DNA of 15,503 nucleotides from a virus (IMGVR_UViG_2579778894_000014:1-15503), one strand, 5' to 3'; numbered from the stretch's first letter, positions 1,351-8,420 are shown. Translations and numbers: made by a program. Notes: generated by a model from the letters alone, not told the origin.

Positions 1351-1810
1351 TTACCACCCCACCAGCATCTTTAAACCTGGAAATCAGGTCACCGATTTTA
1401 TGTTCATACTGACCGTAACCTGCACCAGGTAACGACGCCCAGATATTGCTGCAACGGTCGATTGCCTGACGAATATCGCCACGGTCAATCATCGGTAAAG
1501 CGCCACGCTCTTTAATCTGCTGCAGCGCCACAGCGTCCTGACTTTCTGGCGAAAAATCTTTCAGGCCAAGCTGCTTACAGTAGGCATCCCACCAGCGTGA
1601 AAGAAGCTGATACCGGCCTGCGGCTGTTGATTTAAGCTTCGGGTTTAGCGTGACAAGTTTGCGAGGGTGATCGGAGTAATCAGTGAACAACTCACCTCCG
1701 ACGATAACGTCATAACCGTGATTACGTGTCGGTTGTCGCCCGTTATCCGTTCCTTCTGACCATGCCACCATATCCAGGAAAGCTTTACGTTGGGAATTTA
1801 GTGTCTGCAT
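1334..1810 (-). CDS. R: Endolysin, lambda R-type lytic transglycosylase
   Basis: 158 aa, the same length as lambda R and nearly identical to it as I recall the lambda sequence (QRKAFLDM.AWSEGTDNGRQ.TRNHGYDVIVGGELFTDYSDHPRKLVTLNPKLKST.AGRYQLLSRWWDAY.KQLGLKDFSP.SQDAVALQQIKERGALPMIDRGDIRQAIDRCSNIWASLPGAGYGQ). GGAG Shine-Dalgarno 7 nt upstream. Follows the holin gene with a 3-nt gap. Confidence 0.95.
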   Translation of the reverse strand: MQTLNSQRKAFLDMVAWSEGTDNGRQPTRNHGYDVIVGGELFTDYSDHPRKLVTLNPKLKSTAAGRYQLLSRWWDAYCKQLGLKDFSPESQDAVALQQIKERGALPMIDRGDIRQAIDRCSNIWASLPGAGYGQYEHKIGDLISRFKDAGGVVNEADL

Positions 1811-1813
1811 GAA

Positions 1814-2155
1814 TTACTCCTTAGAGCCACCAAACTTGTTACCGATTACTCGCATTGCAGCCCCACGAATAGCATCGACACCGATCAGCCCAACACCACC
1901 ACCAATGGCAACAGAAAGCGATTTAGGCCATCCGACATACTCAAGAGCGGATGCAAAAGTCAGCGTCAGAGCACCACAGAGCAAAATCTCAAGCGTTTTT
2001 CGTTTCCAGCCGCCGCCACCGCCAAAATAGGCAATGCGCAAGCCAGCCATAACAATTGACATAACCACTGCGCCCAACGGCGTATCTCCACGCCACCAAC
2101 TTTGTAAGAGTTCCAGTAAGTCAGGCCAGGAATGAGGAGCATTGTGCATTTTCAT
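1814..2155 (-). CDS. Holin with MKM dual-start motif
   Basis: The track ORF starts at 2173, but GGAGGT (complement of 2162-2167) lies 6 nt upstream of the ATG at 2155, and the protein then begins MKM with a second in-frame ATG at 2149, the same dual-start arrangement as lambda S. The product has hydrophobic TM segments, Gly-rich stretches and a charged C-terminus, and directly precedes the endolysin. The sequence is not lambda S itself. Confidence 0.75.
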   Translation of the reverse strand: MKMHNAPHSWPDLLELLQSWWRGDTPLGAVVMSIVMAGLRIAYFGGGGGWKRKTLEILLCGALTLTFASALEYVGWPKSLSVAIGGGVGLIGVDAIRGAAMRVIGNKFGGSKE

Positions 2156-2255
2156 ACTTCCCACCTCCGCCATTACGGGGTGTTGTTGAAAGGCGGGCCC
2201 TGCGTATACGCCCGTAGGATTGGGTTATGAGCCGTCCTTCGGTGGGCCCTGAATA

Positions 2256-2279
2256 CAAAAAAAGTTCGCCATAGCGAAC
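2256..2279 (-). terminator. Intrinsic terminator (candidate tR'-like) about 100 nt upstream of holin
   Basis: Read on the minus strand: GTTCGC-TATG-GCGAAC (6-bp perfect stem, 4-nt loop) followed by TTTTTTT. On the plus strand this is A7 at 2257-2263 then the hairpin at 2264-2279. Confidence 0.5.
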
Positions 2280-2506
2280 CTTGTTAAATTTGTTAAAAAA
2301 GGAGGTTATTTAACATAATGTACGTTATAGGAACCACACGATCCCCGCTCGCAATAGATTTGCGATGAAAGGCCTATTTAATCAACTTAAGTGGTCCAGA
2401 ATGACGAAATTCGAGTGAATAAAAGGTGCATAAAAAAGGGCAAAAACTGCATAGCGTTTTTTCGCAGCGAAAGCCCTGTTTTATTAACTTTTCCCCAGAA
2501 TGGGGC

Positions 2507-2533
2507 AATAAAAAAGGCCCCCTTGCGGAAGCC
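2507..2533 (-). terminator. Intrinsic terminator downstream of the 113-aa ORF
   Basis: Read on the minus strand: GGCTTCC-GCAA-GGGGGCC (7-bp stem including two G-U pairs, GNRA-type loop) followed by TTTTTTATT. Confidence 0.45.
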
Positions 2534-2600
2534 TCTTCGTGATGAACTGTTTTCAACAGATATCAGGCTAATCGGCTTTTTGGAATTCCACAACTATTTT

Positions 2601-2942
2601 TTATCTTACCTTGATGCCTGATGCCGTCAGATGTTTACGACAGTCCTGAATACCTTCGTTATAACCCGCATCGTAGAAGCTATCCGGCTTTGCCTTCAGC
2701 GCAGGAAGCGTAACGCTGGTAGCTCTTCGTTCGGCCAGAACACCTGCCTGAAAGAGTGTCCACATCAACTGAACTGCTGAATCACAGTAAGTAACATCTT
2801 CACTGTACAATTCTCGTTCAATCCTGATGCCAAGTTGAGCCTTCATTGATGCGCCAATATTACCTTTGACCTGCAACGACAGGTCTGGGTACCTCTGTTC
2901 CATGAAGCTTTCAAATCTGTTGCGAACGCTGATCAGAGCCAT
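2601..2942 (-). CDS. Hypothetical protein in the Q-to-lysis gap
   Basis: 113-aa ORF starting 31 nt after the Q stop, with a GGGAA-type SD a few nt upstream. No signal peptide and no family recognised by me. Plausible protein composition. Confidence 0.6.
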   Translation of the reverse strand: MALISVRNRFESFMEQRYPDLSLQVKGNIGASMKAQLGIRIERELYSEDVTYCDSAVQLMWTLFQAGVLAERRATSVTLPALKAKPDSFYDAGYNEGIQDCRKHLTASGIKVR

Positions 2943-2973
2943 CTGGTTCCCTTACGTGATTGATTGCTGGATA

Positions 2974-3396
2974 TTATGCCGCCGAGCAGCTCCTACGCAA
3001 AGTCCTGATAGCCTGAGGCTTTGACTGAACCGACTGATCCATTTCGAGCACCACATCCAGCATGGCTAAGCAACCGTCAATAAATCCCTCTGCCGCCTGA
3101 AGCCTCTTCAGAACGTGGGTGTGAGATACGCCGAGCTTCTCACCCATCGCCCGCACGGGCATGGCCTGGACGTAATGCCACTCAAGGAGCGTGCACAGAT
3201 ACGGATCTTTTTTCTTCAGGCAGCTCATAGCGGAGTTGATGATAAGACCGTCATTGTCACTGCATTTCAGCCTTCCAGACTGCGTCGCGGGTAGCAGATT
3301 CTTAAACCCGGCTGCAACAGGAGGAAAGTAGACGCTACCACCTTCACTCGCTGCCCAGCCACCCCAGCGCTCTAAAACCTGTTGAATATTACGCAT
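2974..3396 (-). CDS. Q: Late-gene antitermination protein Q (Phage_antitermQ family)
   Basis: 140 aa. N-terminus MRNIQQVLERWGGWAA...AAGFK and later KRLQAAEGFIDGCLAMLD resemble E. coli prophage Q proteins (QuuD-like) as I recall them. GAGGT SD upstream. Lies upstream of and co-directional with the lysis and packaging genes. Confidence 0.8.
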   Translation of the reverse strand: MRNIQQVLERWGGWAASEGGSVYFPPVAAGFKNLLPATQSGRLKCSDNDGLIINSAMSCLKKKDPYLCTLLEWHYVQAMPVRAMGEKLGVSHTHVLKRLQAAEGFIDGCLAMLDVVLEMDQSVQSKPQAIRTLRRSCSAA

Positions 3397-3441
3397 AGCT
3401 CTGACCTCTACGTTTTGCTACGTTTGGAAATTTTCTACTAC

Positions 3442-3672
3442 TCAATACTCGTTGAATGTCAGGTGGCCGCTAACACTGACGTTTGGCCCGTCAGATAACA
3501 CAAGCTGGAAATTGTCGTCGCAAACAGAGCAGCCGAGGTCAATAACTACCGTTTTGTCGTGTTTATGCGCTCGCATGGCGACATCGCGAATAAACACGCT
3601 GTTACTAGCGCAGCGTGGGCAGGTAATTTCGTTATTTCCGTCGATATGATTTTTTAATCCTGAAACTTTCAT
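3442..3672 (-). CDS. Small zinc-ribbon protein (CxxC...CxxC), function unknown
   Basis: 76-aa ORF with GGAG SD 8 nt upstream of the ATG at 3672. Paired cysteine motifs CPRC and CSVC. Sits between the iteron array and Q. Confidence 0.6.
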   Translation of the reverse strand: MKVSGLKNHIDGNNEITCPRCASNSVFIRDVAMRAHKHDKTVVIDLGCSVCDDNFQLVLSDGPNVSVSGHLTFNEY

Positions 3673-8217: not shown

Positions 8218-8356
8218 ATCTAATCTCTCTCAAACTGTAGGGGTGAAGAGATATTAGACGATTTCTCACTGTAGGGGTACAAGGAGAACCACCTCGCCTG
8301 ATGTGGTTAAAAGCAGGCACTCGATGATATCCATGTAATTGCTGTGTGTAGTCTTT

Positions 8357-8382
8357 GCCCGCCGCAAGTGACGGGCTTTTTT
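8357..8382 (+). terminator. Intrinsic terminator on the plus strand upstream of the early-left genes
   Basis: GCCCG (8357-8361), 10-nt loop, CGGGC (8372-8376), followed by TTTTTT (8377-8382). Confidence 0.45.
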
Positions 8383-8420
8383 ATGTCTGAAAGCGCACTC
8401 GCAACAGCGTGCTCCCCGAT

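Follow-up and report, generated by a model that had tools for sequence, protein, structure and literature searches.

A late control region in a lambdoid prophage of Escherichia coli: a probable Q21/933W-type switch built from separable modules

The DNA analyzed here is a stretch of 15,503 nucleotides (IMGVR_UViG_2579778894_000014:1-15503; "the window" denotes this whole stretch), and the region of interest, positions 2156-2600, lies between the antiterminator gene Q and the holin gene. The window is an Escherichia coli prophage: the stretch 2156-2620 matches a prophage of E. coli O55:H7 DEC5E at 100% identity and is found, once in each genome and in every case on the chromosome, in 139 of the 5,426 complete E. 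coli genomes. The strains ETEC H10407, O103:H2 12009 and IAI1 have the region at an identity of at least 99%. On the minus strand, to which all features below belong unless stated otherwise, the annotated order is a P4-alpha-like primase (DUF5906), a small open reading frame (ORF), Q, an ORF of 113 amino acids (aa), a gap of 427 bp, a lambda-family holin, an endolysin, Rz and terS. RefSeq annotates no gene in the gap between the 113-aa ORF (2601-2942) and the holin, in agreement with the first-pass annotation of this DNA, which had seen no credible ORF there. The region was compared with more than 400 related loci, and the numbered labels used below (L143 and so on) denote loci of relatives; the Q homologues were gathered from viral contigs. 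This comparison of sequences delineates a series of modules, with their boundaries, their conservation and a predicted RNA fold. Collectively, the data indicate that the region is probably the late control region of a known Q type, with a variant candidate Q site, a companion ORF and modular tandem terminators.

Q gene, late promoter and tandem terminators

The Q gene (2974-3396) encodes a protein of 140 aa that matches Pfam PF06530 over its full length (E 5e-42), the Pfam entry of the Q21/933W family (bioRxiv 10.1101/651190). It is likewise assigned to PHROG 79 (anti-termination protein Q-like) and labeled antiterminator Q family protein by RefSeq; a phmmer search of Q against the PDB reached Q21 structures only at E 0.13, which establishes no link. 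The 113-aa ORF lies between Q and the late promoter. A homologue of it follows Q in each of the loci L143-L147, where Q is 67-91% identical, and is missing from L148-L150, where Q is 55-64% identical. A Pfam search with the ORF gives no match, and its PHROG matches are restricted to two families of unknown function and a partial one labeled 'head closure'. In phage vB_EcoM-689R2 the ORF carries an in-frame deletion (locus L002, 3970-4060 listed); the vB_EcoM-689R2 phages are in-silico prophages. Judged by this distribution, the ORF accompanies this Q subfamily as a conserved gene, but one that is sometimes lost.

The late promoter, which the first-pass annotation could not locate, has a candidate at 2565-2593, inside the 2280-2600 interval of that annotation. 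It consists of an invariant 17-mer, TTGTGGAATTCCAAAAA (2577-2593), recognized by its conservation in relatives and containing a -35 hexamer TTGTGG (2588-2593), the palindrome TGGAATTCCA and an A-tract, and of a predicted -10 hexamer TAGCCT (2565-2570) at 17 bp from TTGTGG; the predicted start lies at ~2557-2561. The palindrome (2581-2590) is perfect over 10 bp and, by its invariance, is a candidate Q-binding element. Comparison with relatives further delimits an initial transcribed region at 2541-2564, which includes a small hairpin, CTGTTgaaAACAG (2547-2559). Loci with a Q of 64-71% identity have the 17-mer without change. In L143-L147, the homologue of the 113-aa ORF is directly followed by TTGTGGAATTCCAAAAA, six variable bases and the motif TAnnCT; the initial transcribed region there measures 35-45 nt and leads into a GC hairpin and its T-run. 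In L148-L150 the promoter motif overlaps the stop codon of Q, the classical pR' position. The TAnnCT element stands at unchanged spacing in every relative (TAATCT, TAACCT, TACTCT, TATTGT), and the promoter-like motif with its downstream hairpin and T-run is kept after Q in relatives with Q 50-71% identical. In the relatives, the initial transcribed region reads GnTAAGAGTGGTnAC..CAC and has TAAGAGT or AAGAGT, a possible sigma-dependent, -10-like pause element, at about -4 to +4; in the window and in L143 this region is shorter and diverged.

The most informative variation concerns the palindrome itself. It reads TGTAATTACA in L150, a symmetric change, and CGTAATTACA in L167, and in both loci the predicted recognition helix of Q contains SHN, whereas it contains SHT in all phages with TGGAATTCCA; other palindrome types are paired with quite different recognition helices. 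Distant Q types show the same plan with other inverted repeats, namely TGCG-N3-CGCA in 933W-like loci as well as in L212 and L226, and TACGATCGTA in the Sakai prophage Sp5. Across five groups, palindrome type co-varies with the Q recognition helix; this is a correlation, and the palindrome as a candidate variant mode of Q binding fits the data. In phage 21, two Q protomers occupy a direct repeat, TGAGCA, that is situated between the -35 and -10 elements (PMC6606751). A search for exact copies of the 14-mer Q site of phage 21 yielded chance matches only. In Sakai Sp5, the -10 equivalent TATCAT lies 6 nt before the predicted start (the A of GATAAGAG), and this start is 258 nt ahead of the end of a strong GCCAGCC..GGCTGGC terminator. 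The published pR'-to-tR' distance in Sakai is likewise 258 nt (PMC7547250), a match reached by inference, because the published coordinates differ from those of the RefSeq version by a constant offset.

Both minus-strand terminators noticed in the first-pass annotation are present, and both fold better than shuffles. T1 (2510-2533), the predicted tR' of the Q cassette, has a GGCTTCC/GGGGGCC stem at 2516-2533, a GCAA loop and six Ts at 2510-2515; T2 (2257-2282), found by the consensus scan, has a 9-bp stem at 2261-2282 and seven Ts at 2257-2263. The fold energies are -17.4 and -14.4 kcal/mol for T1 and T2, with z-scores against shuffles of -2.1 and -2.8, respectively. An Rfam search of T1 yielded only a terminator-like ctRNA_p42d match, below threshold. 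The consensus scan finds 2 terminator-like sites where 1.6 are expected in shuffles, and therefore the count alone is no better than chance; above-chance support for the elements comes, as the alignments suggest, from conservation with compensatory changes in relatives. In L143, the T1 stem GGCTTCC/GGGGGCC has become GGCTCTC/GAGGGCC with every pair retained, and all relatives have a hairpin and T-run at the T1-equivalent distance from the promoter. The sequence of the T2 stem varies among relatives, with hairpin and T-run retained. The predicted T1-terminated RNA has a length of ~48 nt, and tandem terminators after pR' are also found in the Shiga toxin (Stx) phage Sp5. The lambda-like layout proposed earlier, with Q, pR', a short RNA and tR', is supported in outline by the PF06530 Q, the conserved promoter-like element, the hairpin and the T-run.

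The X block and alternative promoters

Between T1 and T2 lies a conserved non-coding element of 225 bp, here called X (2283-2509), which was delimited from 73 distinct variants that align nearly without indels. It occurs in four contexts: (i) after tR' and ahead of the holin, as in the window; (ii) ahead of a 187-aa ORF; (iii) in Q-less phages (class C), between an 89-aa helix-turn-helix protein and the structural operon; and (iv) between terS (..AYKKLMG*) and terL (class D), in L264, L268, L272, L278, L282, L284, L291 and L295, as well as in L298, L305, L306 and L314. X is also found after other Q types. In the window, terS and terL adjoin each other with no copy of X between them. The class C regulator of 89 aa has no Pfam match and only a PHROG match, 'transcriptional repressor'. 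A scan of genome contigs with a 21-mer from X gave one unrelated Pseudomonas match only.

The distribution of X separates the two terminators. Phages with another Q (33-47% identity) and without the 113-aa ORF match the window almost exactly over the whole stretch that runs from T1 up to the holin, and the homology between the window and L143 ends at 2287, at the start of another gene. At the holin-linked loci, and also in Yersinia phage YP3, X is followed by a T2-like hairpin with a T-run; no such hairpin follows it at any locus that has terL (class D), the structural operon (class C) or the 187-aa ORF next. The tandem terminators are therefore not one unit: T1 goes with the Q cassette, and T2 with the holin module beyond the separate X block. 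As a separate observation, in L137 and L250 an otherwise identical prophage turns unrelated inside the T2 stem, at the equivalent of window position 2275, so that T2 and the lysis module are replaced or disrupted.

Within X, the -10-like hexamer TATGTT (2312-2317) is present in all 73 variants, and the hexamer 17 bases upstream of it ranges from TTGACG, TTGATA and TTGCCA down to CGTGTG. Most likely, judging from this conservation, X carries its own sigma-70-type promoter in the late sense, the candidate P_X. In the Yersinia phage vB_YpM_39 (L255, 2500-2620), the TATGTT core stands directly upstream of a higB2-type toxin-antitoxin pair, which fits use as a promoter of accessory genes. Other readings of X were tried and rejected. 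A conserved structured RNA was sought on either strand and not found (RNAalifold ~-8 kcal/mol, with a covariation penalty on both strands). The small protein MQFLPFFMHLLFTRISSFWTT, encoded by a 21-codon ORF at 2386-2451 (minus strand), has no Shine-Dalgarno (SD) sequence; its frame is open in several variants, and frame and stop are kept in L143, but it is broken in others, with a stop after 3 codons (class D) or 15 codons (L208), and the conservation is at the nucleotide level. A promoter picked by eye, TTGCGA-19-TATAAC (~2325-2355), lacks the TTG in L143, and its TATAAC lacks the -7 T. A sigma-28 reading of GCCGATAA, which is TTCCTATAA in the window copy, has no -35 match.

The serious rival to a promoter in X, because X adjoins terS in some phages, is a DNA packaging site, that is, pac or a region bound by the terminase small subunit. 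We consider it the less probable reading, though one of real weight. X directly follows terS in the class D loci and in YP3; its internal spacing from TTTTATGCAyGATTTAT to CATTATGTTAAA is fixed at 115 bp in almost all variants, with phased A/T tracts and repeated TATGCA boxes; and it combines a non-conserved -35 position with the lack of conserved RNA structure. On the other hand, terS of the window lies ~1.5 kb downstream, past the lysis genes. Furthermore, the invariant TATGTT, the 17-bp spacer and the near-consensus TTGACG or TTGCCA in ~10 variants resemble a sigma-70 promoter, and terminators follow X where the holin is next, as promoter activity would require.

Two other placements of promoter activity are improbable. 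In the first, the TATGTT block would be read on the plus strand, as a promoter TTGTTA-18-CATAAT (2290-2319) with a transcript running antisense to both the late leader and Q. This is the only sigma-70-like site called in 1700-3500, the window-type variants hold its hexamers invariant while the center of the spacer varies, and ~150 nt away, on the plus strand, there is a hairpin with T-runs on either side. The hexamers do not persist in the wider family, however: YP3 has CATAAG for CATAAT and class D loses TTGTTA, whereas TATGTT is invariant throughout. In the second, to which we also give little credence, the late promoter would be located at the 3' end of Q (TTGCGT-16-CATAAT, ~2960-2990); the late genes would then begin with the 113-aa ORF, and T1 and T2 would be two terminators further downstream. 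CATAAT is a good -10 element, its location is that of pR' in many lambdoid phages, and the sequence is kept in vB_EcoM-689R2. Nevertheless, the sequence is coding, so that its conservation says little; no terminator occurs within 350 nt downstream; and the conserved motif follows the homologue of the 113-aa ORF in L143-L147 and overlaps the Q stop only where this ORF is missing (L148-L150). Preference is therefore given to the late promoter at 2565-2593, followed by T1, with P_X as a second candidate start within X.

The leader RNA and the holin start

The first structure after T2 is a predicted tRNA-like three-way-junction RNA of 55 nt (2195-2249), recognized by covariance model R1 and by covariation. 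Its closing stem P1 pairs GGGCCC with GGGCCC (2244-2249 with 2195-2200), its main arm P2 (2212-2242) has the loop CUCAUAA (2225-2231), and P3 (2202-2211) is the small hairpin GCGTATACGC. The two GGGCCC copies and GCGTATACGC had been noticed in the first-pass annotation; they are present as described, and it is their coordinates that were in error, all three by 10 nt. Class B relatives change GGGCCC/GGGCCC to GGGCTC/GAGCCC, CCG/CGG to CTG/CAG and AGGA/TCCT to CGGA/TCCG, and replace GCGTATACGC by GCGCTTGCGY, with GGACGGCTCATAACCCAATCC invariant. As these changes preserve pairing, the GGGCCC pair is a stem and the 'palindrome' GCGTATACGC is a tetraloop hairpin.

A weak blastn match led from this element to SfV, mEp460, SfIV and Stx2c phages, where a related element heads the early-left operon beside the repressor gene. 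A scan for GGCTCATAACCCAATCC reached at least 120 viral contigs; among the matches listed, there are 87 distinct variants, most of which fold unaided into the same three-way junction. The late-type copy is found in 138 of the 5,426 complete E. coli genomes, and one contig (L407) carries an early and a late copy. Across the family, P1 ranges from 6 to 27 bp (20-27 bp in the early-operon copies), the tip of P2 is GGG-CUCAUAA-CCC, and P3 varies from a 3-bp hairpin to a 40-nt branch. Model R1, built from 21 early-operon copies only, scores the window element at 32.9 bits (E ~4e-8, with a rough E-value calibration), the next best hit in the window reaching 13 bits; it gives 104 matches in 100 sources, among the matches listed. 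In the 104-match alignment, which is model-guided and leans towards R1's own structure, 94.3% of cells are paired, against 36-45% when the partners are slid, and 17 of the 22 pairs vary on both sides; no shuffle attains the observed values.

P2 corresponds to the anticodon arm of E. coli tRNA-fMet, with 14 identical nt in the early copies (CGGGCUCAUAACCC) and 12 in the window. In the late-type copies of L219, L220 and L243, the loop is UUCAUAC instead of CUCAUAA (GGTTCATACCCC), the only changes in an otherwise invariant loop. The element does not qualify as a tRNA gene: ARAGORN finds no tRNA in the window, and D and T arms are lacking, only the anticodon arm and an acceptor-like stem being there. 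Rfam 15 contains nothing that matches 2195-2249 or the SfV copy up to E = 10, and the conserved 15-mer of the junction has no match in the searchable literature. Homology to the put RNA of phage HK022 was rejected, there being no similarity to putL. The leader RNA is thus a member of a widespread family of tRNA-like RNAs that appears undescribed.

Position relative to terminators is a constant trait of this family. A hairpin with a T-run ends just upstream of the junction in 74 of 83 variants; this terminator is T2 in the window, the tR' of a third Q type of 229 aa in L371, and that of an STnc100/RprA-like RNA in the early-operon copies. In the early-left part of the window itself, an RprA-like small RNA is seen on the plus strand at 8273-8386 (47.5 bits, below the Rfam threshold of 70), and over its 3' half (AAUUGCUGUGUGUAGUCUUUGCCCG..terminator) it is almost identical to RprA; in SfV, the related GCUGUGUGUAGUC and a terminator (weak STnc100 match) stand directly ahead of the junction. 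The location after a terminator points to a role on read-through transcripts, and the invariance of the initiator-tRNA arm suggests that a host partner recognizes it. Our best guess is that the junction acts as a cis signal on read-through transcripts, either for processing or stabilization of the RNase P/III type or as an element directed to the ribosome or to initiation factor 3 (IF3). The stronger proposition, that this is a new class of lambdoid-phage RNA with an exact initiator-tRNA anticodon stem-loop, which is the first structure after terminator read-through and acts via host machinery recognizing the arm, is put forward as doubtful.

A decaying tRNA gene of the ileZ/Met type, with no present function, would be an alternative origin of the element. 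In the Stx-type loci L198 and L200, indeed, tR' is immediately followed by a true tRNA whose loop is likewise CUCAUAA, and the late-type GGGCC stem with its 3' GCCU or GCCA tail resembles an acceptor end. Decay is nonetheless hardly compatible with more than 80 variants that keep three helices by compensatory changes around an invariant anticodon arm, with three different operon contexts, with early-operon P1 stems of 20-27 bp unlike any tRNA, or with the ARAGORN result, and this origin is accordingly judged improbable. Least probable of all is that the GGGCCC copies are mere direct repeats around an inserted or deletable segment of 49 bp with no RNA function: E. coli FDAARGOS_943 has lost exactly 49 nt between CAGGGCCCA and CC (CAGGGCCCrCC repeats), with one repeat copy left, but the stem changes of relatives preserve pairing and not repeat identity, family-wide covariation agrees, and this loss is best read as a repeat-mediated deletion because the prophage is degraded by an IS600 insertion. 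A conserved tRNA-like RNA thus remains the preferred reading of 2195-2249.

The holin gene (1814-2155) encodes a protein of the lambda S family (PF05106, E 1e-27) with a Met-Lys-Met (MKM) dual start at ATG 2153-2155 and 2147-2149. The RefSeq holin start is MKM, and the MKM start preceded by GGAGGT was correctly seen in the first-pass annotation, with ATGAAAATG at 2155-2147 and GGAGGT at 2163-2168. Every leader fold predicts a 21-nt hairpin at 2162-2182, CACCCCGU-AAUG-GCGGAGGUG, the 3' arm of which holds the SD sequence GGAGGT (2163-2168), 6 nt ahead of AUGAAAAUG. The lambda layout is alike (CCCCUUAUUGGGGG, 6 nt, AUGAAGAUG), and in a small sample (L216 and L222) the hairpin is kept with changed stem bases. 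On the folding models, this SD hairpin is the analogue of the lambda sdi structure and is separate from the GGGCCC/GCGTATACGC structure. The earlier assignment of an sdi-like role in start choice to the latter does not hold, since the same RNA heads early-left operons with unrelated first genes and is absent from relatives with the same holin type. In L216 and L225, T2 is directly followed by the SD hairpin. Because the junction is absent from such same-holin relatives, it is not essential for holin expression.

Proposed mechanism, related systems and significance

The activity of the promoters, the binding of Q, read-through and the roles of X and the three-way junction are joined here into an inferred scheme, in which the region is probably the late-gene switch of a lambdoid prophage built from separable modules. 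Host RNA polymerase would start directly after the 113-aa ORF, from TTGTGG-17-TAGCCT (2565-2593), and would stop, if Q is lacking, ~45-50 nt on at T1; the short product would be a counterpart of the 6S RNA of lambda or of StxS RNA. Q would bind the palindrome TGGAATTCCA between the -35 and -10 elements and load onto polymerase paused near the start site, and the modified polymerase would pass T1, cross the 225-bp X, pass T2 and transcribe the leader and the lysis genes. T2 would keep P_X transcripts and T1 leakage out of the holin gene. The first RNA past T2 would be the tRNA-mimicking junction, with the GGGCCC acceptor-like stem, the initiator anticodon arm and GCGTATACGC as third hairpin, and the choice of holin start codon would be tuned by the SD-burying hairpin 2162-2182, as it is by sdi in lambda.

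Several points weigh against this scheme. Every promoter and terminator of this prophage is predicted. The -35 and -10 hexamers of the late promoter each match the consensus at 3/6 positions, and this promoter was not among the sites called by the consensus scan. Between these hexamers there is no direct repeat of the phage 21 type, a palindrome standing there instead, and the initial transcribed region of the window reads GATATCTG, with no good TAnnnT and no clear -10-like pause element. In Sakai Sp5 (L254, 868-895), a GC hairpin with seven Ts lies ~25-50 nt past the predicted pR' start, although the RNA made there is 258 nt long; hairpins of the T1 type may therefore be leaky or have a different role. 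As for X, the -35 position of the window copy matches the consensus at 0/6, and a packaging site, too, would be consistent with its location between terS and terL. Finally, the three-way junction is lacking in L204, L216 and L225, which have the same holin type.

Among known systems, the closest likeness is to the Q21/933W cassette (phage 21; Stx pR'-tR' with the StxS RNA), with a PF06530 Q, a predicted promoter at or after Q, a candidate Q element between -35 and -10, a short terminated RNA, lysis genes downstream and, as in Sakai Sp5, a second terminator further on. The window differs in having a 10-bp palindrome where phage 21 has the TGAGCA direct repeat, the 113-aa ORF before the promoter, and the 225-bp block and tRNA-like RNA between tR' and the holin. 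With the lambda pR'/6S/tR' and sdi arrangement, it shares the overall logic, the gene order, a Met-Lys-Met holin of the same Pfam family and a stem-loop with the SD in its 3' arm at a distance of 6 nt from the first AUG; the Q protein, however, is of another family, and the terminated RNA is 194 nt in lambda versus a predicted ~48 nt in the window. In lambda (L441, 44,780-44,870), a long hairpin, GCACAACAGGTAAGAGCA..TGCTCTTTCCGTTGTGC, directly follows tR', and its stem is homologous to P1 in the lambda-like L371 with a different interior; unlike the window RNA, this hairpin has no initiator-tRNA arm (10 bits with R1).

The junction resembles HK022 put RNA as a cis-acting structured RNA that heads termination-controlled phage operons, more than one per phage (L407). 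In contrast to put, it lacks putL similarity, forms a three-way junction rather than two stem-loops and stands just after a terminator, whereas put precedes terminators. tRNA mimics are known in mRNAs, as in the thrS operator and in viral tRNA-like structures. As in these, an anticodon stem-loop is copied into a leader RNA with an acceptor-like closing stem, followed by GCCA in some late-type phage copies; the phage RNA differs in mimicking initiator tRNA, in having neither D arm nor T loop, and in its placement in operon leaders after terminators.

Q antitermination is a textbook switch that controls the release of Shiga toxin, and to our knowledge only the binding site of phage 21 is known at base resolution in the Q21/933W family. 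A palindrome that changes with the recognition helix would thus offer a directly testable specificity code for hundreds of prophage Q alleles. X, found in four different late-operon positions, is an unexplained mosaic element. VapC/MvpT of Shigella and Salmonella cuts tRNA-fMet in the anticodon loop, and the SfV-type Shigella phages carry the early-operon form of the junction. If the RNA acts via its initiator-tRNA arm, it could be a decoy for toxins that cut the tRNA-fMet anticodon loop, a P-site or IF3 ligand setting translation of the first cistron, or an RNase P entry site severing read-through transcripts from the upstream small RNA. Should the three-way junction prove to have a defined partner, it would represent a new class of phage regulatory or anti-defense RNA.

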